In this document: positions 21,601 to 58,010 of the stretch, in pieces | Numbering within the stretch: the first letter of the stretch is position 1 | How the letters are laid out: every line of letters starts with the position of its first letter | Virus record (IMG/VR): IMGVR_UViG_3300042868_009047 | From: a virus | Taxonomy: Duplodnaviria; Caudoviricetes | DNA: 64,000 nt | Direction: 5' to 3' (one strand) | Made by a program: the position numbers and the translations under genes | The notes under the pieces: generated by a model | Told to the model about the DNA's origin: nothing | The model's database searches: none | What the model saw: the letters and a program-made list of their open reading frames with translations, nothing else

Positions 21601-24600
21601 CAGTTGATCCTGAAGATCCACTATTAGCTGAAGCACCGATGTTACCAGCATTACCATTTGTACCGTTTGTACCAGTTGATCCTGAAGAACCTGATAGAGT
21701 ACTTATACCAGAACCAACAGCTAAACCATTTGTACCAGCAGTACCAGTTGATCCTGAAGAACCTGAAGATGCTGAAGAACCACTTAATTGTGATAAACCT
21801 GAGTTACCAGCAGTTCCGTTTGTACCAGTTGAACCTGAAGAACCAGAAGTTCCTGAAGAACCTGAGTTATTACTAGCACCATTGTTACCAACCGTACCAA
21901 TTGTACCTGAAGTTGCTGAAGTACCTGAAGTACCCGCAAAACCTGCTATTCTAGAAATACCGTCAGTACCAGCAGTACCAGTACTACCTGAACTACCTGA
22001 AGTACCACTTGATCTACTCAATGAAGACGCACCATCAGTACCATTTGTTCCAGAAGAACCAGAAGTTCCTGAAGAACCTGACGATCTACTTAAACCTGAT
22101 GTACCATTTGTACCAGTTGATCCTGAAGACGCTGAACTACCAGAGTTAGCTGATAAACCATTACCACCGATTATACCTGTAGTACCATTTGTACCAGTCG
22201 ATCCTGAAGACCCGCTTAATGCACTAGCACCTATATTTCCAGCATTACCTGAAGTACCATTAGAACCAGATGTGCCTGATGAACCTGAGTTATTACTCGC
22301 ACCATTATTACCCGCTGTACCAGTTGAACCTGAAGAACCAGCGGTTCCCGAACTTCTACTTAAACCAGACTGACCATCTGTACCATTTGTTCCTGAAGAA
22401 CCAGAAGATCCAGAAGAACCTGACAATCTTGATAAACCAGCGGTACCAGCGGTACCTGTAGAACCGCTAGATGCTGAAGAACCACTTAATTGTGATAAAC
22501 CTGAGTTACCAGCAGTTCCGTTTGTACCAGTTGACCCTGAACTACCAGATGTTCCTGAAGATCTACTTAAACTAGATTGACCATCGGTACCATTTGTTCC
22601 AGAAGAACCGCTTGTTCCAGAAGAACCAGAAGACCTACTTAAACCAGCAGTACCATTTGTTCCTGAAGAACCACTTGAACCGCTTGACGCACTTGATCCA
22701 CTATTTGAACTTAAACCTGATGTACCATTCGTACCAGTTGAACCTGAAGAACCTGAAGTTCCTGAGCTTCTACTTAAAGCAGACTGACCATCCGTACCAT
22801 TTGTTCCAGAAGAACCTGAAGTTCCTGAAGAACCTGAAGATCTACTTAAACCTGAAGTACCATTTGTTCCTGAAGAACCAGAAGAACCTGAAGAAGCAGA
22901 AGACCCAGACAATTGTGACAAACCTGAGTTACCTGCTGTACCATTTGTACCAGTTGAACCTGAAGTTGCAGAGCTACCTGAAGTTGAACTTAAACCACTA
23001 TTACCAGCATTACCTGATGTTCCATTTGTACCTGTAGAACCACTTGAACCTGAAGTTCCAGCTGAACCAGAACTTCTACTTAAACCTGATTGACCGTCTG
23101 TACCAGAAGTACCAGAGGTTCCAGCTGTTGCTGAAGATCCGCTTAATCTTGATAAACCTGATGTACCAACCGTACCATTTGTTCCTGAAGACCCCGAAGA
23201 TGCGCTAGAACCACTTAACTGAGATAAACCTGAGTTACCAGCGGTTCCGTTTGTACCAGTAGAACCTGAAGTAGCAGAGCTACCAGAAGATGCTGAAGCA
23301 CCTGATAAACCAGATGTACCGTTAGTACCAGTTGATCCTGAAGAACCAGCAGTTCCTGATGACCCAGAACTTCTACTTAATCCAGAAAGACCATCTGTAC
23401 CTGACGTACCTGTTGATCCAGAACTACCTGAAGTTCCAGAAGTATCACTTAATGCTGATTGGCCATCAGTTCCAGATGTACCTGAAGTTCCAGCTGTTGC
23501 TGAAGACCCACTTAATCTACTCGAACCGTTTGTACCAGCAGTACCAGTTGTTCCCGATGAACCTGAAGAAGCAGATGAACCACTTAATTGAGACAATCCA
23601 GAATTACCAGCTGTTCCGTTTGTTCCCGTAGAACCAGAGGTTGCTGATGAACCTGAAGATGCTGACGCACCCGATACACCCGCAGTACCGTCAGTACCTT
23701 TAGAACCACTTGAACCAGATGTTCCTGAAGTTCCTGATGTAACAGATATACCACTATTTGCGGCAACACCTGATGTACCAACTGTACCCGAAGTAGCTGA
23801 GCTACCAGAAGTTCCAGCTGAACCACTATTATTACTTGAACCAACTGTACCATTTGTACCCGTAGAACCTGAAGAACCACTTGTGCCTGAACTTCTACTT
23901 AAAGCAGATGCTCCGTCAGTACCTGAACTACCTGTTGATCCTGAACTACCTGAAGTTCCTGAAGTATCACTTAATGCTGACTGACCATCTGTACCAGAAG
24001 TACCAGATGTACCAGATGTTGCTGAAGACCCAGACAATCTGCCTAACCCAGATGTACCAATTGTACCCGAAGTAGCTGAGCTACCAGAAGTCGCTGAAGA
24101 ACCAGAGTTAGCTGAAGCACCGTTTGTACCAACTGTTCCAGTTGATCCTGAACTACCTGAAGTACCACTTGATCTACTTAGTGATGATTGGCCATCAGTA
24201 CCATTTGTTCCAGAAGAACCAGATGTTCCAGAAGAACCTGACGATCTACTTAAACCTGAAGTACCATTTGTTCCTGAAGAACCAGAAGATGCGCTTGAAC
24301 CACTTAACTGAGATAAACCCGAGTTACCAGCTGTTCCGTTTGAGCCAGATGTACCTGATGTAGCCGAACTACCAGCTGATCCTGAAGAACCACTTAATTG
24401 TGATAAACCGTTTGTACCCGCAGTACCTGAAGTAGCAGAAGAACCTGATGTAGCTGAGCTACCACTATTCGCTGAAGCACCATTTGTACCGTTCGTACCA
24501 GTACTACCAGAAGAACCAGATGTTCCTGAAGACCTACTCAATGAAGACGCACCATCCGTACCATTTGTTCCAGAAGAACCAGAAGTTCCTGAAGAACCTG

Positions 24601-27600
24601 ACGATCTACTTAAACCGCTTGTTCCGTTTGTTCCTGAAGAACCTGAAGATGCTGAAGACCCAGACAATTGTGACAAACCTGAGTTACCAGCTGTACCACT
24701 TGAACCAGAAGTTCCTGAAGTTGCTGAAGATCCCGAAGAACCACTTAACGCTGAAGAACCAACTGTACCTGCTGAACCTGAAGTTGCTGATGTACCAGAA
24801 GTTCCTGAAGAACCACTATTTGCACTAGCACCATTTGTACCAGTGGTACCAGTTGATCCTGAACTACCACTTGTACCTGAACTTCTACTTAAAGCAGAAG
24901 CACCATCTGTACCATTTGTTCCTGAAGACCCAGAAGTTCCAGAAGAACCCGAAGATCTACTCAAACCAGAAGTACCGTTAGTACCACTTGATCCTGAAGT
25001 TGCCGAAGAACCACTTAATTGTGATAAACCTGAAGCACCCGCAGTACCGTTTGTACCTGTAGATCCGCTTGATCCTGATGTTCCAGCTGAACCAGAACTT
25101 CTACTTAAACCTGATTGACCATCAGTTCCTGAAGTACCAGTCGATCCTGAAGAACCAGATGTACCTGAAGTATCACTTAATGCTGATTGGCCATCAGTAC
25201 CTGAGGTACCCGATGTACCAGCTGTTGCTGAAGAACCTGACAATCTTGATGAACCGTTTGTACCAGCGGTACCAGTTGTTCCTGAAGAACCACTTGATGC
25301 GCTTGACCCACTTAATTGTGACAATCCCGATAAACCAGCAGTACCATTTGTACCCGTAGAACCTGAAGACGCTGAAGTACCGCTCGATCCACTATTTGCG
25401 GATTGACCACTTGTACCAGCGCTACCTGAAGATGCTGATGAACCTGATGAACCTGATGTTCCTGAAGTTGCACTTGATCCAGCACTACCTGAAGATCCGC
25501 TTAACTGAGACAATCCTGATGTACCAACCGTTCCTGATGTTGCTGAAGAGCCTGATGTAGCTGAGCTACCTGAGTTAGCTGAAGCACCTGAAGTTCCGTT
25601 AGAACCTGTAGATCCTGAAGAACCAGATGTTCCGCTTGATCTACTTAATGATGATTGGCCATCAGTTCCTGAAGTACCAGTTGAACCTGATGAACCAGAA
25701 GTTCCTGAAGTATCACTTAACGCTGATTGACCGTCCGTACCTGAAGTACCTGACGTTCCAGCTGTTGCTGAAGACCCACTTAATCTACCCAATCCTGAGG
25801 TACCATTTGTACCTGAAGTTGCGGAAGATCCTGAAGTTGCGGAAGAACCACTATTTGCTGAAGCACCTGAAGTTCCGTTAGAACCAGTCGATCCAGAAGA
25901 ACCCGATGTTGCTGAAGAACCAGCAGAACCACTTAACGCTGAAGAACCTGCTGTTCCTGAAGTCCCAGAAGAACCTGCGCTACCAGCTGAACCACTTAAC
26001 GCTGAAGAACCAACTGTACCAGACGTACCAGAAGATGCTGATGAACCTGAAGTTCCAGCAGAACCTGAAAGTTGACTTAAACCTGAAGTACCGATTGTAC
26101 CTGAAGTAGCTGAGCTACCTGAAGTAGCTGAAGAACCGCTATTTGCGCTAGCACCGTTAGTACCGTTTGTACCTGTACTACCTGAACTACCTGATGTACC
26201 AGAACTTCTACTTAATGAAGACTGACCATCTGTACCATTTGTACCTGAAGAACCCGAAGTTCCTGAAGAACCTGAAGATCTACTCAAACCTGAAGTACCA
26301 TTTGTTCCTGAAGAACCGCTAGATGCTGAAGAACCGCTTAATTGAGATAATCCTGAGTTACCAGCTGTTCCATTTGAACCGCTTGTACCAGAAGTCGCTG
26401 AAGAACCAGCAGATCCACTTGAACCACTTAATGAACTTAAACCAGATGTACCCGCAGTACCACTTGTAGCAGAGCTACCAGCTGTTGCTGAAGAACCTGA
26501 ATTAGCAGATGCTCCGTTTGTACCGTTTGTACCCGTAGAACCACTTGAACCAGATGTACCAGAACTTCTACTTAACGCTGATGCACCATCCGTACCCGCT
26601 GATCCTGAAGAACCAGAAGAACCTGATGTACCACTTGTTGCTGAAGTACCCGCTGAGCCTGAGCTACCACTTAATTGTGATACTCCAGATGTTCCAGCTG
26701 TTCCTGATGTTGCGGAACTACCAGCTGTTGCTGAAGAACCACTATTTGAACTTAATCCTGACGTACCGTTTGTTCCAGTTGATCCTGAAGAACCAGCAGT
26801 TCCTGATGAACCTGAAGATCTACTCAAACCAGATTGTCCGTCAGTTCCTGAAGTTCCCGTAGAACCTGATGATCCAGAAGTTCCTGATGTATCACTTAAA
26901 GCTGACTGACCATCTGTACCAGATGTACCAGAGGTTCCAGCTGTTGCTGAAGATCCGCTTAATCTACCCAATCCTGAGGTACCCGCAGTACCACTTGTAG
27001 CTGAACTACCAGAAGTTGCTGAAGAACCTGAATTTGCACTTGCACCTGAAGTACCAGTAGAACCTGTTGAACCACTTGATGCAGATGTTCCTGAAGAACC
27101 ACTATTTGAAGATAAACCAGATGTACCGTTTGTACCAGTTGATCCTGAAGAACCACTAGAACCTGACGTACCGCTTGATTTACTTAATGCTGAAGCTCCA
27201 TCAGTACCAGATGTACCACTTGAACCTGAAGAACCAGATGTACCACTTGTTGCAGATGTTCCAGCAGAACCAGAAGAACCTGATAATTGAGACAATCCAG
27301 ATGTACCAACTGTACCTGAAGTGGCAGATGAACCAGAGGTTGCTGATGAACCGCTATTTGCTGAAGCGCCATTTGTACCGTTTGATCCAGTTGAACCACT
27401 TGAACCAGATGTTCCTGAAGATCTACTTAACGATGATTGACCATCAGTTCCTGAAGTTCCTGTTGATCCTGAAGAACCACTTGTTCCAGAAGTATCGCTT
27501 AAAGCTGATTGGCCATCTGTACCTGAAGTACCTGATGTACCAGCCGTTGCTGAAGAACCTGATAATCTACCTAAACCTGAAGTACCGTTTGTACCTGAAG

Positions 27601-30600
27601 TTGCGGAAGAACCAGATGTAGCTGAACTACCAGAGTTTGCCGATAAACCGCTTGTACCAGCTGATCCTGAAGAACCACTTGTTCCCGCTGTTGCTGAAGA
27701 ACCAGCTGAACCACTAGAACCACTTAACGCTGAAGAACCAACTGTACCTGCCGAACCTGAAGTTGCTGATGTACCGCTTGTTGCAGAAGAGCCACTATTT
27801 GAAGATAAACCAGATGTACCGTTTGTACCTGTTGATCCTGAACTTCCACTTGTACCTGAACTTCTACTTAAAGCAGATGCTCCGTCAGTACCAGCTGATC
27901 CTGAAGAACCACTTGATCCTGATGTACCTGAAGTCGCAGATGTACCAGCAGATCCAGAAGAACCTGAAAGTTGACTTAATCCTGATGTACCAATTGTACC
28001 ACTTGTTGCCGAACTACCAGAAGTTGCAGATGATCCAGAATTAGCACTTAATCCTGATGTTCCAGCTGAACCAGTACTTCCTGAAGAAGCTGATGTACCC
28101 GCTGAACCAGAAGATGCGCTTAAACCACTAGAACCTGATGTTCCTGAAGTCGCAGAAGAACCTGCGCTACCAGCAGAACCGCTTAATGCTGAACTACCTG
28201 AAGTACCAGTTGTACCGCTTGTTGCAGAACTACCAGCTGTTGCTGAAGAACCACTATTCGAACTCAACCCTGAAGTACCGTTTGTACCAGTTGAACCACT
28301 TGAACCAGAAGAACCTGAAGTTCCTGAAGATTTACTTAATGCTGATTGACCATCAGTTCCTGAAGTTCCAGTTGAACCACTTGATCCAGATGTACCAGAT
28401 GTATCACTTGTAGCAGAAACACCATCTGTACCTGAAGTACCTGATGTACCAGCTGTTGCTGAAGAACCGCTTAGTCTTGACAAACCTGAAGTACCGATTG
28501 TACCTGATGTAGCTGAAGAACCTGAAGTTGCTGATGAACCACTATTTGCGCTAACACCTGATGTACCAGCAGTACCTGTAGATCCAGAAGAACCTGAAGT
28601 TGCTGAACTACCACTTAATGCGCTAGCCCCTGAAGTTCCAGCCGAACCACTTGAACCTGAAGTTGCTGATGTTCCAGCTGAACCAGAACTTGCTGATAGA
28701 CCTGAAGACCCTGCGGTTCCTGAAGTTGCTGATGTACCAGCCGAACCTGAACTACCGCTTAATGCTGAGCTACCTGATGTACCAGTTGTACCACTTGTAG
28801 CTGAACTACCGCTTGTTGCAGATGATCCGCTATTAGCCGATAAACCTGAAGTACCATTTGTACCAGTTGATCCTGAAGATCCACTTGATCCAGATGTACC
28901 TGAAGATCTACTTAAACCTGATTGACCATCAGTTCCTGATGTACCTGTAGAACCACTTGATCCAGAAGTTCCTGAAGTATCACTTAACGCTGATTGACCG
29001 TCCGTACCTGAAGTACCTGATGTACCAGCTGTTGCTGAAGACCCACTTAATCTACCCAATCCTGAAGTACCATTTGTACCTGAAGTCGCTGATGAACCAC
29101 TTGTTGCTGAGCTACCAGAGTTTGCACTAGCACCTGAAGTACCAGCAGAACCTGTTGATCCTGAAGAACCAGAAGTCGCAGAAGAACCTGCGCTACCACT
29201 TAACGCTGAACTACCAGAAGTACCTGTTGTTCCAGAAGTAGCAGATGAACCTGCGCTCCCCGAAGATGCGCTCAATCCTGAGCTACCAGCTGTTCCTGAA
29301 GTAGCAGAGCTACCTGAAGTTGCCGAAGATCCGCTTAATTGAGATAAACCATTTGTACCAGCAGTACCAGTTGTACCAGAAGATGCTGATGTACCGCTTG
29401 AACCACTATTTGCAGCTAAACCTGAGGTACCATTTGTACCAGAAGTTGCTGATGAACCAGAAGAAGCTGAAGTTCCTGAAGAAGCAGATGCTCCTGAAGA
29501 TCCATTAGAACCTGATGAACCTGCGGTTCCTGAAGTTGCCGATGAACCAGAAGATGAACTTAATCCTGAAGACCCTGCGGTTCCAGAAGTTGCTGAAGTA
29601 CCCGCTGAACCACTCAATGCAGAACTACCAGATGTACCTGTTGTACCTGAAGTTGCTGATGAACCAGAAGTTGCTGAAGAACCCGAGTTAGCGCTTAGGC
29701 CTGACGTACCATTTGTACCAGTTGATCCTGAAGATCCGCTAGAACCAGATGTACCACTTGATTTACTCAATGCAGAAGCACCATCAGTTCCTGAAGTACC
29801 AGTCGATCCTGAAGAACCAGATGTACCTGAAGTATCACTTAAAGCAGATTGACCATCAGTACCTGAGGTACCCGATGTACCAGCTGTTGCTGAAGAACCA
29901 GACAATCTTGATAAACCTGAAGTACCATTTGTACCTGAAGTAGCAGAAGAACCAGACGATGCCGAAGTTCCTGAGGAAGCTGAAGCTCCTGAAGAACCAG
30001 CTGATCCAGCTGAACCTGATGTTCCAGCTGTTGCTGAAGAACCACTTGAAGCACTTAAACCTGAAGATCCAGCTGTTCCTGAGGTAGCCGAACTACCTGA
30101 AGTTGCTGAAGATCCGCTTAATGCACTTAAACCACTCGTACCATTTGTACCTGAAGTAGCTGAACTACCAGACGATGCTGATGTTCCTGAAGATGCCGAA
30201 GCTCCTGAAGAACCTGATGATCCCGTAGAACCTGCGGTTCCTGATGTTGCTGAACTACCAGAACTTGCACTCAACCCTGATGAACCTGCGGTTCCAGAAG
30301 TTGCTGAAGATCCTGATGTTGCTGAACTACCACTATTTGAAGATAATCCTGATGTACCGTTTGTACCTGATGTAGCTGAGCTACCTGATGTACCTGATGA
30401 ACCAGAACTATTACTATTTCCACTCGAACCTGCGGTCCCTGAAGAAGCTGAACTTCCTGAAGAACCTGATGTACCGCTAGTCGCAGATGATCCACTTGTA
30501 GCAGATGATCCCGAATTAGCAGCCAATCCTGAGGTACCATTTGTACCTGAAGTTGCTGATGAACCAGATGATGCCGAAGTTCCTGAAGAAGCTGAAGCAC

Positions 30601-33600
30601 CTGAAGAACCATTAGAACCAGTTGAACCTGATGTACCGCTTGACGCTGATGTACCTGAAGAAGCGCTTAAACCTGAACTTCCAGCTGTTCCTGACGTAGC
30701 AGAGCTACCTGAAGTTGCTGAAGAACCACTATTTGAACTCAATCCCGAAGTACCGTTTGTTCCACTTGTAGCAGAAGAACCAGAACTTGCAGATGTACCT
30801 GAAGAAGCTGAAGCGCCTGAAAAACCAGCTGATCCACTTGTACCTGAAGTACCTGAAGAAGCTGAACTTCCAGATGATGCACTTAAACCAGAACTTCCAG
30901 CCGTTCCTGAGGTAGCGGAGCTACCTGAAGTTGCTGAAGAACCCGAGTTAGCGGCCAACCCTGATGTACCATTTGTACCTGAAGTAGCTGAACTACCAGA
31001 CGATGCTGATGTTCCTGAAGAAGCTGACGCACCACTTGACCCAGCTGAACCTGAAGATCCTGAGGTCGCAGAAGTTCCTGAAGAACCAGCTGAACCCGAA
31101 CTACCTGAATTAGCAGCTAAACCTGAAGTACCATTTGTACCTGAAGTAGCTGAACTACCAGACGATGCTGATGTTCCTGAAGAAGCGGAAGCCCCTGATG
31201 AACCAACAGAACCTGTTGAACCTGAAGTTCCACTTGTTGCTGAAGACCCAGCAGAAGAACTTAAACCTGAAGATCCAGCCGTACCACTTGTAGCAGAGCT
31301 ACCTGAAGTTGCTGATGAACCACTATTACCTGATAAACCACCAGTACCATTTGTTCCTGAAGAACCAGAAGATCCTGATGTAGCTGAAATAGCTGAAATA
31401 CCATCAGCACCATCAACCCCACTTGAACCTGAAGTTCCTGATGAACCAGATGTTTTACTTGAACCAGCTAAACCACTTGTACCTGTTGTACCCGAAGTTG
31501 CTGATGAACCACTTGTTGCTGAAGACCCTGAATTAGCTGATAAACCACTTGTACCAGCTGTTCCTGAAGTTGCAGATGAACCAGATGATGCTGATGTTCC
31601 TGAAGATGCTGATGCCCCTGATGAACCTGATGTACCAGCTGTTCCACTTGTAGCTGAAGAACCTGATGTTGCAGATGTACCTGAAGAAGCTGAAGCTCCA
31701 CTTGAACCTGCCGAACCACTAGTTGCAGATGTACCTGAAGAAGCTGAACTTCCAGATGATGCACTTAAACCAGAACTTCCAGCCGTTCCTGACGTTGCAG
31801 ACGAACCAGAAGAAGCCGAAGAACCCGAATTAGCAGCTAAACCTGAGGTACCGTTTGTACCTGAAGTTGCTGATGATCCTGATGTAGCTGAACTACCGCT
31901 TAAAGCAGAAGCCCCACTTGTACCTGATGAACCTGAACTACCTGATGTAGCTGAAGTACCTGAAGTTGCTGATGAACCACTATTTGCACTCAAACCTGAG
32001 GTACCGTTTGTACCTGAAGTCGCTGACGAACCCGATGATGCACTTAAGCCTGAAGAACCAACCGTACCACTTGTTGCAGAGCTGCCTGAAGAAGCTGACG
32101 CTCCTGATGAACCATTAGAACCTGAAGTAGCAGAGCTGCCTGAAGTTGCTGATGATCCTGAGTTTGCTGATAAACCAGAAGTACCATTTGTACCTGTAGA
32201 ACCAGCTGTTCCTGAAGAACCTGAAAATTGACTTAAACCTGACGCACCAGCAGTACCATTTGTACCAGTTGATCCTGAAGAACCGCTTGATCCAGATGTT
32301 CCTGAAGTTGATGATAAATTACTATCCCCACCAATACCTGATGTTCCAGTTGAACCCGAACTACCTGAGGTCCCTGATGTTGATGATAAATTACTTTCAC
32401 CATCTATACCTGAAGTACCATTTGATCCACTTGACCCTGATGTACCTGAAGAAGAACTATCACCACTTATACCTGAGGTTCCATTGGAGCCGTCAGCTCC
32501 TGAAGAACCGTTTGTTCCAGTTGAACCTGATTCACCTGACAATCCAGATGTACCATAAGACCCATCATTTCCTGAAGATCCATCAGACCCAGTTGACCCA
32601 GACGTACCTGATTGACCAGATGTGCCATAAGACCCATCATTTCCTGAAGATCCATCAGACCCAGTTGATCCTGATTCACCTGACAATCCAGATGTACCAA
32701 AAGAACCATCAACACCTGATAAACCCGATGTACCGTCTGATCCAGAGACACCTGAAACACCGTTAACACCATTTAAACCTGAAGAACCATCACTACCATT
32801 TGAACCTGACTCCCCACTTCGACCATTTGAACCAAAGGAACCATAAACTCCTGAAGAACCATCTGTTCCATTACTACCAGATTCACCTGAAACACCTGAA
32901 GTCCCATTGGAACCATTATTTCCTGAAGATCCATCGGATCCTGTAGAACCACTTTCACCACTTAAACCTGAAGTTCCAAAACTACCATCATTTCCTGAAG
33001 AACCGTCAGTACCTGTACTACCAGATTCCCCTGATTGACCAGATGTTCCGAAAGAACCATCTAAACCACTCGATCCGTCTGTTCCAGTTGACCCAGATTC
33101 ACCACTTATACCTGAGGTTCCGTTGGAACCATTATTACCACTACTACCATCTGTACCTGTTGAACCAGATTCACCAGATTGACCTGAAGTTCCAAAGGAA
33201 CCATCGTTTCCTGAAGATCCATAAGTACCATTTGATCCAGATTCACCACTTATACCTGAGGTTCCGTTGGAACCTGAAACACCTGATGTACCATCAACAC
33301 CATCAACACCATCAACACCATTTGTACCACTTGATCCTGATTCTCCGCTTATACCTGAAGTTCCGTTGGAACCATTATTACCACTAATACCATCTGTACC
33401 AGTTGATCCGCTTTCACCAGATTGACCACTTGTACCAAAACTACCATCGTTTCCTGAAGATCCATCGGATCCAGTTGAACCAGACGTACCAGATTGACCT
33501 GAAGTTCCAAAACTACCGTCAGCTCCTGAAGAACCATCTGAACCTGTTGAACCAGACGTACCAGATTGACCTGAAGTTCCAAAACTACCGTCAGCTCCTG

Positions 33601-34876
33601 AAGAACCATCTGAACCTGTTGATCCAGACTCACCTGACAACCCTGAAGTTCCAAAACTACCATCAACACCTGATAAACCCGATGTACCATCTGATCCAGA
33701 GATACCAGAACTACCATCAACACCATTTAAACCAGAAGTACCAGTTGAACCGCTTTCACCTGAAACGCCACTTGTACCAAAAGAACCATCGTTTCCTGAA
33801 GATCCATCGGATCCAGTTGAACCGCTTTCACCTGATTGACCTGAAGTTCCAAACGATCCGTCATTTCCTGAACTACCGTCAGATCCTGTACTACCTGACT
33901 CTCCACTTACACCTGAAGTTCCATTGGAGCCATTATTACCACTACTACCATCTGAACCAGTTGAACCAGATTCACCTGATAAACCAGATGTTCCGAAAGA
34001 ACCATCAGCACCCGATAAACCGTCTGTGCCAGTGCTACCACTTTCACCGCTTATACCTGATGTACCAAAAGATCCATCATTTCCTGAAGACCCATCGGAT
34101 CCTGTAGACCCGCTTTCTCCACTTATACCTGAAGTTCCGTTGGAACCAGAAACACCACTTATACCTGAAGTTCCGAAGGAACCATCAACACCACTTATAC
34201 CTGATGTACCATCAACACCATCAACACCATCAACACCATTTGTACCTGAAGTACCAGAAACCCCTGATGTACCATAAGATCCGTCATTTCCTGATGAACC
34301 ATCACTACCTGTACTACCACTTTCTCCACTTACACCTGAAGTTCCGAAGGAACCATCAGCACCACTTTCGCCTGAAGTTCCTGTGGATCCAGATTCCCCT
34401 GAAACCCCTGAAGTTCCAAAAGAACCATCATTTCCTGAAGAACCATCAGAACCTGAAGAACCTGATGTTCCTGACTCACCTGAAGTACCGTAAGAACCAC
34501 CTAAACCTGAATAACCTGAAGTACCAGCGGTACCAGATGTACCTGCTAATAAAGGTGAATAAGAATATTCACCAGTAACTGAATTAAACGACACGAAATA
34601 GTTTGGTGAACTATTTTGGGTCATACCAGTAACAAATAATTGATTTAATGTATAAATACCCTTAAGATCTTGGGTATTTTCCCACTGAAGCGTGGAGTTA
34701 TTCCAAACTAGAATATCCCCTTCATTGGGGCCAGCGCCAGCTATTACAACGTCTGATAGATCATCTATACCTAGATTTTCTATAACGTCCTTTATATTTT
34801 GGAAGTTAGCGTCTAATTCCGCGTAGGATAGCGCCCTTCCTAGATCATCCCTAAGATAAATTGTTACTGTTGCCAT
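18629..34876 (-). CDS. Giant (5415 aa) Gly/Ser/Thr G-X-X repeat fibre with C-terminal peptidase S74 intramolecular chaperone
   Basis: N-terminal GRALSYAELDANF fibre-type motif; about 5100 aa triplet repeat; C-terminal AFSDERVK..GVIAQEV..LLIEAIKDL. Confidence 0.9.
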   Translation of the reverse strand: MATVTIYLRDDLGRALSYAELDANFQNIKDVIENLGIDDLSDVVIAGAGPNEGDILVWNNSTLQWENTQDLKGIYTLNQLFVTGMTQNSSPNYFVSFNSVTGEYSYSPLLAGTSGTAGTSGYSGLGGSYGTSGESGTSGSSGSDGSSGNDGSFGTSGVSGESGSTGTSGESGADGSFGTSGVSGESGSTGSDGSSGNDGSYGTSGVSGTSGTNGVDGVDGVDGTSGISGVDGSFGTSGISGVSGSNGTSGISGESGSTGSDGSSGNDGSFGTSGISGESGSTGTDGLSGADGSFGTSGLSGESGSTGSDGSSGNNGSNGTSGVSGESGSTGSDGSSGNDGSFGTSGQSGESGSTGSDGSSGNDGSFGTSGVSGESGSTGTSGLNGVDGSSGISGSDGTSGLSGVDGSFGTSGLSGESGSTGSDGSSGADGSFGTSGQSGTSGSTGSDGSSGADGSFGTSGQSGTSGSTGSDGSSGNDGSFGTSGQSGESGSTGTDGISGNNGSNGTSGISGESGSSGTNGVDGVDGVDGTSGVSGSNGTSGISGESGSNGTYGSSGNDGSFGTSGQSGESGSTGTDGSSGNNGSNGTSGISGESGSTGTDGSSGLDGSFGTSGQSGESGSTGTDGSSGNDGSFGTSGLSGESGSTGSDGSSGNNGSNGTSGVSGESGSNGTDGSSGVYGSFGSNGRSGESGSNGSDGSSGLNGVNGVSGVSGSDGTSGLSGVDGSFGTSGLSGESGSTGSDGSSGNDGSYGTSGQSGTSGSTGSDGSSGNDGSYGTSGLSGESGSTGTNGSSGADGSNGTSGISGDSSSSGTSGSSGSNGTSGIDGESNLSSTSGTSGSSGSTGTSGIGGDSNLSSTSGTSGSSGSSGSTGTNGTAGASGLSQFSGSSGTAGSTGTNGTSGLSANSGSSATSGSSATSGSNGSSGASASSGSSATSGTVGSSGLSASSGSSATSGTNGTSGLSANSGSSATSGTSATSGSSGSSGTSGASALSGSSATSGSSATSGTNGTSGLAANSGSSASSGSSATSGTAGSSGLSASSGSSASSGTSATSGSAGSSGASASSGTSATSGSSATSGTAGTSGSSGASASSGTSASSGSSATSGTAGTSGLSANSGSSATSGSSATSGTTGTSGLAGSSKTSGSSGTSGSSGVDGADGISAISATSGSSGSSGTNGTGGLSGNSGSSATSGSSATSGTAGSSGLSSSAGSSATSGTSGSTGSVGSSGASASSGTSASSGSSATSGTNGTSGLAANSGSSGSAGSSGTSATSGSSGSAGSSGASASSGTSASSGSSATSGTNGTSGLAANSGSSATSGSSATSGTAGSSGLSASSGSSASSGTSGTSGSAGFSGASASSGTSASSGSSATSGTNGTSGLSSNSGSSATSGSSATSGTAGSSGLSASSGTSASSGTSGSTGSNGSSGASASSGTSASSGSSATSGTNGTSGLAANSGSSATSGSSATSGTSGSSGSSASSGTAGSSGNSNSSGSSGTSGSSATSGTNGTSGLSSNSGSSATSGSSATSGTAGSSGLSASSGSSATSGTAGSTGSSGSSGASASSGTSASSGSSATSGTNGTSGLSALSGSSATSGSSATSGTAGSSGLSASSGSSATAGTSGSAGSAGSSGASASSGTSASSGSSATSGTNGTSGLSRLSGSSATAGTSGTSGTDGQSALSDTSGTSGSSGSTGTSGTDGASALSKSSGTSGSSGSSGSTGTNGTSGLSANSGSSATSGSSATSGTTGTSGSSALSGSAGTSATSGTAGSSGLSSSSGSSATSGTAGSSGSNGSSGASASSGTSASSGSSATSGTNGTSGLAANSGSSGTSASSGTTGTAGTNGLSQLSGSSATSGSSATSGTAGSSGLSASSGSAGSSATSGTTGTSGSSALSGSAGSSATSGSSGSTGSAGTSGASANSGSSATSGSSATSGTNGTSGLGRLSGSSATAGTSGTSGTDGQSALSDTSGTSGSSGSTGTSGTDGQSGLSRSSGTSGSSGSSGSTGTNGTSGLSANSGSSATSGSSATSGTTGTSGSSALSGSSGSAGTSATSGTAGSSGLSASSGSAGTSATSGSSGSAGTSGASALSGSSATSGSSGSTGTAGTSGVSANSGSSATSGSSATSGTIGTSGLSRLSGSSATAGTSGTSGTDGVSATSDTSGTSGSSGSTGTSGTDGQSALSKSSGTSGSSGSSGSTGTNGTSGLSSNSGSSATAGSSATSGTTGTSGSSALSGSAGSAGSSATSGTSGSSGLSASSGSAGTSASSGSTGSAGTSGLSANSGSSATSGSSATSGTIGTSGLSQLSGSSGSAGTSATSGTSGSSGSSGSAGTDGASALSRSSGTSGSSGSTGTNGTSGLSSNSGSSATSGTSATSGSAGTVGSSALSGSSGSAGSSATAGTSGSSGSAGTSGLSANSGSSATSGSSATSGTNGTSGLGRLSGSSATAGTSGTSGTDGQSALSDTSGTSGSSGSTGTSGTDGQSSLSRSSGTSGSSGSTGSNGTNGASANSGSSATSGSSATSGTVGTSGLSQLSGSSGSAGTSATSGTSGSSGSSGTSGTDGASALSKSSGTSGSSGSSGSTGTNGTSGLSSNSGSSGTSASSGSTGSTGTSGASANSGSSATSGSSATSGTAGTSGLGRLSGSSATAGTSGTSGTDGQSALSDTSGTSGSSGSTGTSGTDGQSGLSRSSGSSGTAGSSGSTGTNGTSGLSSNSGSSATAGSSATSGTAGTSGVSQLSGSSGSAGTSATSGTSGSSGSSGSAGTDGASALSRSSGTSGSSGSTGTNGTNGASANSGSSATAGSSATSGTAGTSGLSSLSGSSGSAGSSATSGTSGSNGTAGNSGLSQLSGSSASSGSSGTNGTSGLSRSSGSSGTSGSSGTNGTDGQSSLSRSSGTSGSSGSTGTNGTNGASANSGSSATSGSSATSGTIGTSGLSQLSGSAGTSGSSASSGTSGTVGSSALSGSAGSAGSSGTSGTAGSSALSGSAGSSATSGSSGSTGSNGTSGASANSGSSATSGSSATSGTNGTSGLGRLSGSSATAGTSGTSGTDGQSALSDTSGTSGSSGSTGTSGTDGQSSLSRSSGTSGSSGSTGSNGTSGASANSGSSATSGSSATSGTVGTSGLSQLSGSSGSAGSSATSGTSGSSGSSASSGSAGTSGQSANSGSSGTSASSGSTGTNGTAGLSGLSQLSGSSASSGSSGTTGTAGTNGSSRLSGSSATAGTSGTSGTDGQSALSDTSGTSGSSGSTGTSGTDGQSGLSRSSGSAGTSGSSGSTGTNGTAGASGLSQLSGSSATSGSSGTNGTSGLSRSSGSSGTSGSSGTNGTDGASALSRSSGTSGSSGSTGTTGTNGASANSGSSGTSGTSATSGSAGTVGSSALSGSSGSSATSGTSGSSGTAGNSGLSQLSGSSASSGSSGTNGTSGLSRSSGSSGTSGSSGTNGTDGASSLSRSSGTSGSSGSTGTNGTNGASANSGSSATSGSSATSGTAGTNGLSQLSGSSGSAGSSATSGTSGSNGTAGNSGLSQLSGSSASSGSSGTNGTSGLSRSSGSSGTSGSSGTNGTDGQSSLSRSSGTSGSSGSTGTVGTNGASANSGSSATSGSSATSGTIGTSGLGRLSGSSATSGTSGTSGTDGQSALSDTSGTSGSSGSTGSSGTDGASALSRSSGTSGSSGSTGTNGTVGSSNNSGSAGTSGSSATSGTVGTSGVAANSGISVTSGTSGTSGSSGSKGTDGTAGVSGASASSGSSATSGSTGTNGTAGNSGLSQLSGSSASSGSSGTTGTAGTNGSSRLSGSSATAGTSGTSGTDGQSALSDTSGTSGSSGSTGTSGTDGLSGLSRSSGSSGTAGSSGSTGTNGTSGLSGASASSGSSATSGSTGTNGTAGNSGLSQLSGSSASSGSSGTNGTVGTSGLSRLSGSSATAGTSGTSGTDGQSGLSRSSGSAGTSGSSGSTGTNGTSGNAGNSGLSSTSGSSATSGSTGTNGTAGNSGLSQLSGSSASSGSSGSSGTNGTSGLSRSSGSSGTSGSSGTNGTDGQSALSRSSGTSGSSGSTGTNGTSGLSSNSGSSASSGSSGSSGTNGTAGLSRSSGSSGTSGSSGTNGTDGQSSLSRSSGTSGSSGSTGTNGTAGNSGLSQLSGSSASSGSTGTAGTAGLSRLSGSSGSSGSSGTNGTDGQSGLSRSSGTAGSSGSTGTAGNNGASNNSGSSGTSGSNGTSGNAGNIGASALSGSSGSTGTNGTTGIIGGNGLSANSGSSASSGSTGTNGTSGLSRSSGSSGTSGSSGTNGTDGASSLSRSSGTSGSSGSTGTAGTDGISRIAGFAGTSGTSATSGTIGTVGNNGASNNSGSSGTSGSSGSTGTNGTAGNSGLSQLSGSSASSGSSGSTGTAGTNGLAVGSGISTLSGSSGSTGTNGTNGNAGNIGASANSGSSGSTGTNGTTGIIGGNGLSANSGSSASSGSTGTNGTSGLSGLSGSSGTSGSSATSGLAGSSGSSGTEGTTGTTGFRGQSGFSGTSGLSGSAGSTGSNGTSGNAGNIGASALSGSSGSTGSNGTGGVAGLNGISALSGTSGSSGTAGNSGLGGSSGTSGSSGSSGTAGASGSSRLSGSSATSGSNGTSGNAGNIGASANSGSSGSTGTNGTTGNAGANGNSAVSGTSGSTGTAGTNGLPVPSGISQLSGSSGSTGTNGTNGNAGNIGASANSGSSGSTGTNGTTGNNGNSGNSGLSGTNGSTGTNGNNGANGVSGLSGLSGSNGTAGTSGASGGNGVSGLSGLSGSNGSNGTNGNAGGNGNSGLSGTSGSTGSTGTTGNAGGNGNSAVSGSSGSSGTGGTNGLPVPSGISQLSGSSGSSGTNGTSGNAGTIGLSRLSGSSGSTGTNGTSGNNGNSGNSGNSGLSGTNGSNGTNGNNGANGVSGLSGISGSNGTAGTSGASAGNGVSGLSGSSGSTGTSGTTGNAGAIGLSRLSGSSGSTGTNGTNGNNGANGNSGNSGLSGSNGTAGTSGASGGNGVSGLSGISGSNGTAGTNGNNGANGNSGNSGLSGSTGTNGTTGNNGNAGGNGNSAVSGSSGSSGTGGTNGLPVPSGISQLSGSSGSTGTNGTSGNNGNNGNSGLSGLSGSNGSNGTNGNNGGVGLGGVSGVSGTNGSTGTGGANGLNGGNGNSGVSGVNGSNGTNGAAGNNGNNGANGTSGVAGNNGNNGAGGLSGVNGSNGTNGAAGNNGNNGAGGLSGVNGSNGTNGAAGNNGNNGAGGLSGANGTNGTTGVAGTSGQSINGTSGISGGSFTNQPDYLVRTTSATQVQSVSFLKVDTTSNRLGINNASPSYTLDVSGTIYASADVIAFSDERVKDNVVTISDALNKVRSMRGVNYTRNDVEDKSLKMGVIAQEVQKVIPEVISTRESDGYLGVAYSNLVGLLIEAIKDLDKEIQDLKK
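19080..34545 (-). repeat. In-frame 9-nt-period low-complexity coding repeat with higher-order blocks
   Basis: GTS/GSS/GST/ATS/GTN triplets; recurring block GTDGQSALSDTSGTSGSSGSTGTSGTD with varied synonymous codons; boundaries approximate. Confidence 0.9.
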
Positions 34877-54986: not shown

Positions 54987-56885
54987 TTAATTTAGTTTTA
55001 TTGTTTTATTTGTTTTGGTTTGAGATCCTGTTTGTAAAACACCGTAATATGTACCAGGTGTAACGTTAGTTAAGTCAACTGGATAAAGGTACTTACCTTC
55101 ATACATTTTACCACTAAAAACCGTGTATACTAATTTTCCGTTTACATCATAAAAACCAACGGTTATCTCACCATCTTCAGGTACGCTAAAACTCACAAGA
55201 GCCAAACCTTCTGTTGGGTTAGGGCATACCATTATTTCACAATCTTTTGTTAATACACCACCACCATTTATTCTGAATATTTTAACAACACCATTTGTTG
55301 GTGTTATTCTTAAATCGGTTGCGTTTGCATCACCAGCATATTTTCTAATAACATATAAAGGACTATTGTTCCAGCTTGTTTGTGGTGATAGTGCTGTGAA
55401 TTGTAAAGTTAAAATATTATCACCATCATTAGCTAAATATTTATTATTACTCATATCAGCACCAGCCCATTCAATAACACCGTTGTTAGGGTTTAAGAAT
55501 GACATCCAGTTCATAAATTTTTCTTCAGTTTTAATACCCTTGAACTCCAATAAAGTTTTGTCATAAGCTAAAGCTAATTGAGCTGAACCAACTTGATTAC
55601 CATAAGTTAAAACTTTCATTGGTACGTTTACTAAACTACCTTCAGTGATTTCGATTTTTGGTAAATTAATTTCGATTGTTGATGTAGGGAAATCATACTC
55701 AACAGTTTCGTCAATAATATATTTAGGAGTTTTGCTTGGGTTTAAAATTTCAATAGGGATTGTACGAGCCATGTTGAATCCAGTACCGTTAGCATCACCA
55801 CCACCTAATACATAATACGTTACTGAGTCTGGTTGACCAGCAATGATATCAAATGTTAGGTTAGTTACACCAGCAATTGATGAGGTATAGTTAGTTGAAG
55901 AACCGTTGATGGTTCCATATTGTGAAACTGTGAAGAATCTTACATCTTGTACAGAGTTTGGCCATACAGAGAATCTACCCGCTAAACGACCATAGATAGC
56001 TGATACGTCAGCGATTGTAATACTATTTGATCCGTTAACGTCTGAAGCGTAATAATCAAACCCAGTTGGTGTCATTTCGCCAAGAATATATTTGTTAACT
56101 CTTTGTGCATCAGCAACAGATACCGTGTTACCAACACCCATTGTATCACCCTTAACATATAAATGAGCATCCCAATAAGTTGTATCCAAGATTTCATCAA
56201 AAGCGAAATAACCAGTAAGATCTGTTGTGTCAAGCTTTACTTGAGTCCAAGCACCACTTGATGTCTTAGGTCTTTTCTCAAGAGCAACTGTAATGTTCTT
56301 AGAACCAGAACCTGTTACGTTTGTGAATCTACCGTGGTATTTCAATCTATTCATCTTAAATTCACCACCATAACTGTGTAAAGATAACGTTGTATCCATA
56401 CCAGCAATTGTTGAGGCATAAGATGGAAATGTCAAAGTACCAGTTACCTTTAAACTATCAATACTTGTCAAAGCTTGGAAGGCTGTTGAGTTTTGATGGA
56501 AGAACTTTATTTGGAACGCAGTACCAGTAGAATATGTAAATGCGGTGTTTGTACCTGTGTAAGCCAATGTAACAGTAATATTACCGTTAACAGAATCGGC
56601 AACATATTGCATGTACTGATCAGTAGAACTGTACTGTAAAGTTACAATTGGTTTTGCACCACCAAAAGCTACTTTGTCGTAAAATACACGAAACTGTAAA
56701 CCAGCGATTTTAGTCGTTGTTGTGTTGTCATAATAAAGGTTAGCTAAAGTGTAACCTTGAGATTGCGGACCAACATTGTAAGAAGAGTCAACGATAACCC
56801 AATTACCATTTGATGGTGCGGTTGTTTGTGCATAACCAATTACGGTTACAAACGCCAGCACTAGCGTTAAAAAGAAATTTTTCAT
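54987..56885 (-). CDS. T9SS cargo: two cohesin-like domains, dockerin-like motif, type A C-terminal sorting domain
   Basis: Signal peptide; IAGLQFRVFYD and SAQLALAYD; SDVNGSNSITIADV; VCPNPT..YDVNGKLV..PGTYYGVL..KTIK. Confidence 0.75.
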   Translation of the reverse strand: MKNFFLTLVLAFVTVIGYAQTTAPSNGNWVIVDSSYNVGPQSQGYTLANLYYDNTTTTKIAGLQFRVFYDKVAFGGAKPIVTLQYSSTDQYMQYVADSVNGNITVTLAYTGTNTAFTYSTGTAFQIKFFHQNSTAFQALTSIDSLKVTGTLTFPSYASTIAGMDTTLSLHSYGGEFKMNRLKYHGRFTNVTGSGSKNITVALEKRPKTSSGAWTQVKLDTTDLTGYFAFDEILDTTYWDAHLYVKGDTMGVGNTVSVADAQRVNKYILGEMTPTGFDYYASDVNGSNSITIADVSAIYGRLAGRFSVWPNSVQDVRFFTVSQYGTINGSSTNYTSSIAGVTNLTFDIIAGQPDSVTYYVLGGGDANGTGFNMARTIPIEILNPSKTPKYIIDETVEYDFPTSTIEINLPKIEITEGSLVNVPMKVLTYGNQVGSAQLALAYDKTLLEFKGIKTEEKFMNWMSFLNPNNGVIEWAGADMSNNKYLANDGDNILTLQFTALSPQTSWNNSPLYVIRKYAGDANATDLRITPTNGVVKIFRINGGGVLTKDCEIMVCPNPTEGLALVSFSVPEDGEITVGFYDVNGKLVYTVFSGKMYEGKYLYPVDLTNVTPGTYYGVLQTGSQTKTNKTIKLN

Positions 56886-57014
56886 GTTTAGTTGTTTTGA
56901 TTACTTATAAATATAAAAAAAACTTAAAAAAACCATTTACTTTGAAAAAAAAAGTGTTAAACATGAAATAACTTTTGCAATAAATACGGATATTTATTGA
57001 TTAAAAAATAGGGT

Positions 57015-57260
57015 ATGAATAAAATTGCACTTGAATACTTAAAAGAATTACAACAACAGTTAATAATATTAGCTGATGAACAACAAAATAAATTAGGAGA
57101 AATCAATAATGAGAACTTTAAAGATGATGTATCTGAAAACATTTTTGGCAGAATAGATGATGTCCTTTATGAGATTGAAACTATAATAACCGATATCGAA
57201 GAAGGTTATTATATTAATGAAAAAAGTGAGTTTGATGATGACCAGGATGATGATTTTTAA
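57015..57260 (+). CDS. Small very acidic protein
   Basis: 81 aa, D/E-rich, ends DDDQDDDF. Confidence 0.6.
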   Translation: MNKIALEYLKELQQQLIILADEQQNKLGEINNENFKDDVSENIFGRIDDVLYEIETIITDIEEGYYINEKSEFDDDQDDDF

Positions 57261-57277
57261 AAAAAATTAAAAAAAAC

Positions 57278-57308
57278 TTGTTTATTAAAGGAACTTTGCT
57301 TACTTTTG
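57278..57308 (+). promoter_or_regulatory. Bacteroidota sigma-70-type promoter of the tRNA-array leader
   Basis: TTG 57278-80, 20 nt, TACTTTTG 57301-08. Confidence 0.75.
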
Positions 57309-57332
57309 TACTAATTATAACAATAACGTAAA

Positions 57333-57431
57333 ATGAAAAATATGAACCTACATATCGCAGTGATTAAACCGATGGCAATTTGCCAGTGGTATCGTCATGC
57401 CGTGCCAGGTTCAGACCAAGTATTTTCATAA
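57333..57431 (+). CDS. Putative attenuator leader peptide, 32 aa, MKNMNLHIAVIKPMAICQWYRHAVPGSDQVFS (not in ORF track)
   Basis: A-rich start context 24 nt after the -7 box; codons 6-25 match the downstream tRNA set. Confidence 0.75.
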   Translation: MKNMNLHIAVIKPMAICQWYRHAVPGSDQVFS

Positions 57432-57465
57432 TGTTATAGAATAAAACTAAAACTAGAAAACACAA

Positions 57466-57498
57466 AGCCCTGGACCTACAAGTTCAGGGTTTTTTTTT
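57466..57498 (+). terminator. Conditional intrinsic terminator (attenuator 3:4 helix) before first tRNA
   Basis: AGCCCTGGAC-CTACAA-GTTCAGGGTT with T9 tract at 57490-98. Confidence 0.85.
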
Positions 57499-57501
57499 GC
57501 A

Positions 57502-57511
57502 GTTCTTTGAC
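57502..57511 (+). promoter_or_regulatory. boxA-like antitermination site
   Basis: GTTCTTTGAC between terminator and first tRNA; resembles rrn boxA. Confidence 0.55.
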
Positions 57512-57528
57512 GTATTGGTAATTTATTT

Positions 57529-57604
57529 CAGGATATGGGGGAGTCAGGTCGTCCCTACCTGCCTTGGACGCAGGGGATCGCTGGTTCGAATCCAGCTATC
57601 CTGA
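57529..57604 (+). tRNA. trnP: tRNA-Pro(TGG)
   Basis: CAGGATA/TATCCTG acceptor; CCTGC-CTTGGAC-GCAGG; GCTGG-TTCGAAT-CCAGC. Confidence 0.9.
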
Positions 57605-57610
57605 CAAAAT

Positions 57611-57685
57611 GTCTTCGTAGCTCAGTTGGTTTAGAGCACCTCACTTTTAATGAGGGAGTCATGAGTTCGAATCTCATCGGGGACA
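57611..57685 (+). tRNA. trnK: tRNA-Lys(TTT)
   Basis: GTCTTCG/CGGGGAC; CCTCA-CTTTTAA-TGAGG. Confidence 0.92.
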
Positions 57686-57690
57686 CAAAT

Positions 57691-57760
57691 GTATAAGTTG
57701 ATCGTGGTGGTCGGTTGGTCTGCAACACCAACGGTGTTGGTTCGATTCCAACCTTATACT
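57691..57760 (+). tRNA. trnC: tRNA-Cys(GCA), short D-loop
   Basis: GTATAAG/CTTATAC, U73; TTGGT-CTGCAAC-ACCAA. Confidence 0.8.
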
Positions 57761-57769
57761 CAAATACAC

Positions 57770-57842
57770 ACGTCTGTAGCTCAGTTGGTAGAGCACTGGT
57801 CTCCAAAACCAGGTGTCGTTGGTTCGAATCCAGCCAGGCGTG
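57770..57842 (+). tRNA. trnW: tRNA-Trp(CCA)
   Basis: ACGTCTG/CAGGCGT, G73; CTGGT-CTCCAAA-ACCAG. Confidence 0.92.
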
Positions 57843-57848
57843 CTAAAT

Positions 57849-57928
57849 GCCCTTGTAGGCGAATGGTATAGCCGCTGGTCTTAGAAACCAGAGCGAAAGC
57901 ATTGCAAGTTCGAGTCTTGCCAGGGGTA
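57849..57928 (+). tRNA. trnL: tRNA-Leu(TAG)
   Basis: CTGGT-CTTAGAA-ACCAG; long variable arm. Confidence 0.9.
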
Positions 57929-57933
57929 CACAT

Positions 57934-58006
57934 GCACCTTTAGCTCAGTTGGTAGAGCGCTGCCCTTACATGGCAGATGTCATAGGTTCGAGTCCTATAG
58001 GGTGTA
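57934..58006 (+). tRNA. trnV: tRNA-Val(TAC)
   Basis: CTGCC-CTTACAT-GGCAG; ATAGG-TTCGAGT-CCTAT. Confidence 0.92.
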
Positions 58007-58010
58007 CAAA

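Follow-up and report, generated by a model that had tools for sequence, protein, structure and literature searches.

A putative ribosome-mediated attenuator ahead of a 13-gene tRNA array in a large phage

We analyzed a stretch of 64,000 nucleotides of the IMG/VR virus record IMGVR_UViG_3300042868_009047 (Duplodnaviria; Caudoviricetes), called here the window, in which a short open reading frame (ORF) and an intrinsic terminator precede an array of 13 tRNA genes. This leader is likely a ribosome-mediated transcription attenuator that senses tRNA supply, and the phage would probably make the 13 tRNAs only when ribosomes read their codons slowly. A preliminary description of the same DNA had proposed a four-strand switch, in which strand 2 pairs with either strand 1 (1:2) or strand 3 (2:3), and strand 3 with either strand 2 or strand 4 (3:4). 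The features of the leader and its surroundings are collected in Table 1.

Table 1. Features of the putative attenuator and its neighborhood (positions in the window)
Feature	Position	Strand	Remarks
Upstream gene, 81 codons	57015-57260		precedes the promoter
Bacteroidota-type promoter (predicted)	57277-57308	+	-33 CTTG at 57277-57280; -7 box TAnnTTTG (TACTTTTG) at 57301-57308
Long hairpin	57323-57437	+	115 nt; encloses the whole ORF; holds 1:2 and the inner hairpin
Leader ORF, 32 codons	57333-57431	+	MKNMNLHIAVIKPMAICQWYRHAVPGSDQVFS; 25 nt after the TAnnTTTG box; stop codon at 57429-57431
Strand 1	57343-57349	+	TGAACCT; codons 4-6; invariant in 12 relatives
Inner hairpin	57368-57390	+	ACCG-A-TGGCA-ATT-TGCCA-G-TGGT; inside the 1:2 loop
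Strand 2	57407-57414	+	AGGTTCA(G), AGGTTCAG; codons 25-27; partners strand 1 or strand 3
Spacer helices	57420-57463	+	in the antiterminated fold only: GU/AC, UUUUC (57423-57427) with GAAAA (57456-57460), GUU/AAC, UAG/CUA
Intrinsic terminator	57464-57498	+	12-bp stem, 57464-57475 with 57482-57493; loop CTACAA; T9 at 57490-57498
Strand 3	57470-57477	+	CTGGACCT; within the terminator region
Strand 4	57482-57491	+	GTTCAGGGTT; then T9
BoxA-like element	57502-57522	+	GTTCTTTGACGTATTGGTAAT; 3 nt after T9, 6 nt before tRNA-Pro
tRNA array, 13 genes	57529-59249	+	Pro, Lys, Cys, Trp, Leu, Val, Tyr, Ala, Gln, Met, His, Arg, Ile
ORF, 167 codons	58197-58700		inside the array; overlaps tRNA-Tyr at the listed TTG start; signal-peptide-like start MRKLIIIIMVLSTTIC

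Each of codons 6-22 of the leader ORF is strictly cognate to one of the array's 13 anticodons, examples being CTA with tRNA-Leu(UAG) and CGT with tRNA-Arg(ACG). In a Monte Carlo test, a cognate run of this length (17 codons; null mean, 2.25) was reached in none of 20000 samples (P < 5e-5), and neither was the representation of all 13 tRNAs (null mean, 5.3; 0/20000). Each of the 13 codon types is sampled once to three times. The match also held in phages with other arrays. In L044, the array is without tRNA-Ala and has an extra tRNA-Ser(GCU), and the leader has no Ala codon and has gained an AGT codon. The leader of L036 contains a run of 10 array amino acids with the core LLGADLEAGD, the array consisting of Leu, Met, Gly, Ala, Glu, and Asp (0/20000 samples), while that of L050 represents eight of its nine tRNAs (0/20000). 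L109 and L115 have an array of Pro, Ile, Lys, Cys, Trp, Asn, Tyr, Gln, Met, Val, Phe, His, and Ser (and Arg), i.e., with Asn, Phe, and Ser added and Leu and Ala absent relative to the window, and their leader, NKHMNVVIWKQQFSNCSYP, is built from the amino acid set of that array. The same correspondence was found by reading the leaders of L110 and L113. An ORF on the opposite strand (57364-57465) was dropped from consideration; it has a TTG start, and no support for it was seen.

We then examined the structures that the leader can adopt. The four strands, the inner hairpin, and the T9 tract lie to the base where the preliminary description had placed them, and direct reading of the sequence bore out the seven perfect pairs of 1:2 and the pairing of 3:4 ahead of T9, the latter as part of the 12-bp terminator stem. 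The 2:3 helix had been described as having 8 bp; eight pairs, one of them G:U, are indeed present in the window, but only seven are conserved. The 1:2 pairing turned out not to be a separate helix but the middle of the long hairpin, which also pairs AUGAAAA (57333-57339) with UUUUCAU (57423-57429) and so joins the start codon to the end of the ORF. The structural layout fits the trp/his attenuator topology assigned to the leader earlier, except that the stop codon, which in trpL lies between strands 1 and 2, here follows strand 2 and leaves both strands inside the ORF.

The calculated duplex energies were -7.9 kcal/mol for 1:2, -10.0 kcal/mol for 2:3, and -16.1 kcal/mol for 3:4; that of the terminator, which ends 30 nt before tRNA-Pro, was -16.4 kcal/mol. 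The minimum free energy (MFE) fold of 57315-57500 consisted of the long hairpin, with 1:2 and the inner hairpin in it, and of the terminator with 3:4. Its energy was -49.7 kcal/mol, compared with -30.5 ± 3.6 kcal/mol for shuffled sequences (z = -5.3), none of 200 shuffles being as good. For the pairings themselves, 2000 dinucleotide shuffles of 57333-57460 were made with the terminator unchanged. A partner of the 5' arm matching the observed one arose in 8% of them, a second partner for that strand in 12%, and both together in 1.45%. This result is suggestive, being modestly unusual for the window alone and not decisive, and the case therefore rests on the comparative evidence given below.

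The behavior of the switch was followed by constrained and cotranscriptional folding. In a series of growing transcripts without a ribosome, 1:2 formed with the polymerase near 57424 and lasted until the terminator formed at the T tract. To mimic a stalled ribosome, all RNA as far as 13 nt beyond the A-site codon was deleted, and the transcript was cut off ahead of strand 4. Under these conditions, 2:3 closed three short spacer helices, with an energy of -13.0 to -13.5 kcal/mol, and it was also the closing helix when 57395-57477 was folded alone (-13.0 kcal/mol). The 5' arm of the terminator was paired with a probability (P) of 0.86 when the A site was at codons 2-22 and of 0.15 to 0.41 from codon 23 to the stop; the productive stall window thus ends at the point where strand 2 comes into the ribosome. 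With a ribosome at the stop codon, approximately 57414-57443 is covered, so that the spacer helices have their 5' strands masked and strand 2 is at the trailing edge, where, according to the model, it could re-pair only with strand 1. The two states foreseen in the preliminary description, namely, 1:2 first and persistent without a ribosome and 2:3 with a stalled one, were thus both recovered. Its central proposal, readthrough by way of 2:3 upon stalling and termination by 3:4 otherwise, is likely right in the light of the folding, the conservation, the covariation, and the recurrence of the design. The modeling adds two qualifications: readthrough would be possible only for stalls at approximately codons 2-22, and 2:3 would need the inner spacer helices to reach -13 kcal/mol.

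For comparison, 12 distinct leader versions were collected from viral and metagenome contigs by way of the upstream 81-codon protein and DNA patterns; further pattern scans turned up nothing in the immediate family that diverges more than L044. All 12 keep the short ORF behind the promoter, the translation of which is predicted. None of them showed a change in strands 1-4 (third codon positions included), in the inner hairpin, or in the two non-coding blocks, ATGTTATAG and ACTAAAACT; the variation fell in codons 9-11, 16, and 21-25. The helices of the long hairpin were 83 to 100% paired, with two double-sided changes in helix 4 (in the variable codons), the inner hairpin (helix 5) was 100% paired with changes only to wobble pairs, and the spacer helices (2 and 3) were 94 to 100% paired. 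Between the window and L044, 11 of the 32 residues of the leader peptide differ, and the conserved parts coincide with the helices. Since the strands never vary, the 12 close relatives are uninformative as to covariation in strands 1-4. Two further leaders that share the peptide start MKNMNLHI (L059 and L076) were dropped as members, there being no tRNAs nearby.

More distant leaders with the same type of terminator (L109, L115, L118, and L119), belonging to phages with tRNA arrays of different composition, were found by using as a probe the apparently conserved RNA between tRNA-Val and tRNA-Tyr. In an alignment of 10 sequences, the seven pairs of 2:3 were 92.9% paired, compared with 9 to 47% for slid controls. 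Double-sided changes were seen at three pairs of 2:3, two of them clean: 57408:57476 goes from G:C to A:U in three sequences, and 57413:57471 goes from A:U to G:C in one. The observed 2:3 covariation score was reached by 1 of 500 shuffles. In the terminator, a G:U pair gives way to G:C in L066, and in the leaders of L109 and L119 both arms have altered in concert. A sister family gave a further case, a synonymous TCT-to-TCC change in strand 2 between L110 and L120 being matched by an A-to-G change in the terminator 5' arm. For 1:2, the distant leaders share only the GAAC/GUUC core, with different flanks (GAAC is kept in L109 and L119). The covariation by which the preliminary description proposed to judge both helices is therefore present for 2:3 in the form of double-sided changes and weak for 1:2, which is invariant in close relatives and reduced to its core in distant ones.

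The same layout was found before phage tRNA arrays in at least five other leader families with unrelated sequences: L036/L038/L049 and L037 (leader MKNLHI...), L050 (leader MKRNNLHI...), L052 and L039 (leaders of 42 to 45 codons), L110/L120, and L113. In these families the ORF ends 23 to 35 nt before the terminator stem, and its last quarter contains a segment complementary to the 5' arm of the terminator; it is always in this quarter that the arm has its best partner. The most extensive example was L052, in which 2:3 is a perfect 12-bp helix of GGUCUUUUUGAA with UUCAAAAGGACC. The ribosome scan gave the same pairing step in each family, and in those compared (the window, L036, L050, and L109) the step fell at the end of the array-matching codons. 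In the shuffle control for 5'-arm pairing, 1% to 28% of shuffles matched the observed value, depending on the family.

Transcription of the array was considered next. The promoter block ACTTTGCTTAnTTTTGTACTA is kept in all 12 relatives, and the start of transcription is predicted near 57313. The TAnnTTTG motif is not enriched in the window (100 matches versus 91 expected), so the promoter call is based on position and conservation. No other TAnnTTTG was found on the plus strand between 56323 and 59400. Because the boxA-like element begins 3 nt past T9 and no promoter separates the two, transcripts of the array in this phage must have run through the terminator. The boxA-like motif was matched in 31 viral stretches and, among the distinct ones read, mostly precedes tRNA genes; the same sequence occurs in the 16S-23S spacer of Bacteroidales, 27 to approximately 65 nt upstream of 23S rRNA. 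The sequence GTTCTTTGACNTATTGGTAAT is common to many phage tRNA arrays (57502-57522 of the window; L092, L093, L096, and L107) and to Bacteroidales rRNA spacers. It is probably the rrn boxA of Bacteroidota, borrowed by phages for their tRNA arrays, and its position and resemblance suggest that the host element functions as a boxA. L001 and L002 have lost all tRNAs and are also without the promoter and the leader ORF, but the terminator and the boxA are retained, which ties the ORF to the tRNAs and not to the terminator. At approximately 4235-4340 of L001/L002, a weakened terminator plus boxA follows the 81-codon gene and precedes the counterpart of the 167-codon ORF. Contigs from one study with RNA libraries covered 57019-57524, and one contig ran in adjoining pieces from 57020 across the terminator and the array to 59223; they represent a relative with 92 to 96% identity, come from libraries that may hold DNA, and are silent on transcript ends and readthrough.

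From the observed sequence features, alternative folds, conservation, covariation, and leader-array match, we infer the start site, the translation of the ORF, its coupling to polymerase, and the direction and size of the effect, as follows. Transcription would begin at the promoter near 57301, and the nascent leader would be translated. With no ribosome on it, or with one at the stop codon, the halves of the leader would zip into the long hairpin, which would hold strand 2 in 1:2 and act as an anti-antiterminator. Strand 3, being free, would then pair with strand 4, and the 12-bp/T9 terminator would halt the polymerase ahead of tRNA-Pro. A ribosome awaiting a scarce aminoacyl-tRNA at approximately codons 2-22 would instead cover or separate the 5' half of the hairpin. 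The freed strand 2 would meet strand 3 as it emerges and form the -13 kcal/mol structure of 2:3 and three short spacer helices, so that, before strand 4 is made, the inner 5 or 6 bases of the terminator's 5' arm would already be taken up, together with the first two of the loop. The polymerase would read on through the boxA-like element and then the 13 tRNA genes. Because codons 6-22 are the codons that these 13 tRNAs read, the circuit would report their supply and feed back on their synthesis.

Several observations weigh against this mechanism. Forcing 2:3 gives, at best, a fold 13 kcal/mol less stable at equilibrium than the terminated one, and 2:3 (-10) is weaker than 3:4 (-16); since the terminated fold wins, the model depends on kinetics and on the coupling of transcription and translation, which is not known from Bacteroidota. 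Shuffled upstream RNA pairs the 5' arm at an average P of 0.6, with 0.86 reached in 5% of shuffles. A swap of ORFs and terminator arms across families did not discriminate, as GC-rich arms also paired well with ORFs of several other families. When the ribosome stalls at codons 12-22, it leaves strand 1 exposed behind it, and pairing across the ribosome was assumed to be impossible. The eighth pair of 2:3 (57407:57477) is broken in 6 of the 12 close relatives. As to the codons, GCC (codon 23) is not strictly cognate, nor is CTT in some relatives, and the leaders of L119 and L112 keep a Trp TGG codon although no tRNA-Trp was found in their arrays. Between tRNA-Cys and tRNA-Asn, these two arrays have approximately 700 nt in place of the tRNA-Trp of L109/L115/L118, which would mean that a loss or insertion took place recently or that a tRNA escaped detection. 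A promoter-like TAnnTTTG lies between the terminator and the boxA in L037 (minus strand, approximately 12560-12620) and L039 (3660-3745); there the terminator cannot be the sole gate, attenuation would be one of two inputs, and the second promoter suggests dual control with a constitutive and an attenuated input. Finally, the RNA data are assembled contigs, which cannot show RNA ends, and translation, termination, and readthrough are predicted.

We weighed three other explanations. The leader could be an independent small gene, encoding a protein or a stable small RNA of approximately 185 nt and ending in a constitutive terminator, with the array transcribed by leakage or from another start and the pairings being incidental. 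The long hairpin plus terminator does resemble a stable small RNA, the N terminus MKN..LHI is kept across families, and in L001/L002 this terminator does no more than close the upstream 81-codon gene; the promoter-like sites of L037 and L039 and the modest result of the chance test in the window alone point the same way. We nevertheless consider this explanation unlikely. It leaves unexplained why each leader carries the codons of its own array and changes with that array, and why strand 2 and the terminator arm covary through synonymous changes. The peptide, moreover, is poorly conserved outside the helices, and the boxA follows the terminator with no promoter in between.

The terminator could also be conditional but set by another input, such as a phage or host antitermination factor, a T-box-like contact with tRNA, temperature, or processing by RNase III. 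The boxA-like element indicates that the array uses the host antitermination machinery, the long, perfect-ended hairpin is a possible RNase III substrate, and ribosome-polymerase coupling is not known to have been proven in the phylum. Being downstream of the terminator, however, the boxA would be of no help in passing it, and no T-box or other riboswitch matched at E values up to 1. Every family examined has an intact ATG ORF 23 to 35 nt before the terminator stem despite the unrelated sequences, and the in-frame codon content tracks the array. An input other than translation is in our view improbable. That the complementarities arose by chance around an ordinary terminator and have no function is harder still to believe: single pairings are unremarkable, with 8% and 12% of shuffles equaling them, but the z score of the fold, the invariance of the strands down to third codon positions, the compensatory changes, and the recurrence of the design in unrelated leaders all speak against it. 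Sensing of tRNA supply by a translating ribosome thus remains the explanation that we favor.

The source is read as a large phage of a Bacteroidota host because a neighboring gene (54987-56885) carries a type IX secretion system (T9SS) sorting domain and the promoters are of the TAnnTTTG type. The DNA is AT-rich and recurs in lake and freshwater metagenomes. Apart from the sorting domain, Pfam searches of the neighboring genes gave nothing relevant to the leader, and a search of phage GenBank DNA gave tRNA matches only. Rfam searches of 56500-60000 at E values up to 1 produced no match to the T-box covariance model or any known family, only subthreshold matches confined to the terminator region: Thr_leader RF00506 (22.6 bits; gathering threshold, 55) and ohsC (27.3 bits; gathering threshold, 50). 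Elsewhere in the window, 18629-34876 on the minus strand is a single ORF of 5415 codons.

Other features lie within or near the array. The 167-codon ORF, for which there was no Pfam match, is at the same place in L003-L009 and directly after the boxA in L001/L002. Between tRNA-Val and tRNA-Tyr, approximately 140 nt (58008-58147) contain no ORF, tRNA call, or Rfam match, and yet a core of 40 nt (58035-58076) does not differ between diverged relatives, and a 19-mer (58040-58058) occurs in 28 viral stretches, always within tRNA arrays; this stretch appears to be a conserved RNA. L005-L009 (5598-5672) and L031 (8890-8962) carry a tRNA with the anticodon CTA (amber suppressor type) and an extra tRNA-Cys; both lie upstream of the leader cassette, outside the attenuator, and neither is present in the window. 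The CTA tRNA may reflect recoding of TAG in part of this phage group.

The known enterobacterial attenuators include trpL, hisL, and the multivalent ilvGMEDA leader, which has 32 residues and Ile, Leu, and Val codons. The phage leader resembles them in its promoter-proximal short ORF with regulatory codons, its terminator before the regulated genes, and a strand with two alternative partners, the upstream strand or the terminator 5' arm, between which the position of the ribosome decides; like the ilv leader, it would sense several amino acids together. In every structural respect tested, the sequence agrees with membership of this class. The differences are that tRNA genes and not biosynthetic enzymes would be regulated, so that the correctable signal would be the supply of tRNA rather than of amino acid, that 13 codon types take the place of single-codon runs, and that one hairpin encloses the whole ORF, including the start codon. 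Bacteroidota, the phylum of the presumed host, are not known to use Shine-Dalgarno initiation, and no described leader-peptide attenuator is known to regulate genes other than those for amino acid biosynthesis or for synthetases; the genes here are 13 tRNAs and belong to neither group.

Conditional termination of genes of the translation apparatus according to the state of a tRNA is also known for pheST of E. coli, with its pheM leader, and for the T-box systems of Firmicutes. pheM, however, senses one tRNA and controls a synthetase, and T-box RNAs bind uncharged tRNA directly, without translation. Neither system is known to control tRNA genes. In rrn antitermination, boxA loads NusB/NusE on the rRNA leader and spacer RNA. 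The element at 57502-57522 resembles the boxA core (G/T)CTCTTTAACA, but it occurs in a phage, before tRNA genes and directly downstream of the attenuator. In the open-access full texts searched, we found no account of leader-peptide attenuation of tRNA genes.

Genes for tRNAs are thought to be controlled at the promoter, by growth rate and the stringent response, and the reason why phages carry tRNA arrays is debated, codon usage and escape from tRNA-targeting defenses both having been put forward. If the proposed mechanism is true, the phage measures the speed of decoding and adjusts its tRNA output to it, and classical attenuation would reach into another phylum and take in a kind of regulated gene that is new to it. 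With only a promoter, 32 codons, and a terminator, the switch is small and modular, and it would give experiments direct access to the question of when a phage needs its tRNAs. More tentatively, and with rather less confidence than we place in the attenuator itself, the leader may be a thirteen-channel gauge of tRNA supply that detects when host tRNAs have been depleted (for instance, through anticodon nucleases of the host or the phage's own shut-off of the host), turns on replacement tRNAs, and is held in check by negative feedback as these build up. If that is so, it would, taken with the other leader families described above, represent a widespread and undescribed form of tRNA gene regulation in large phages of several bacterial phyla.
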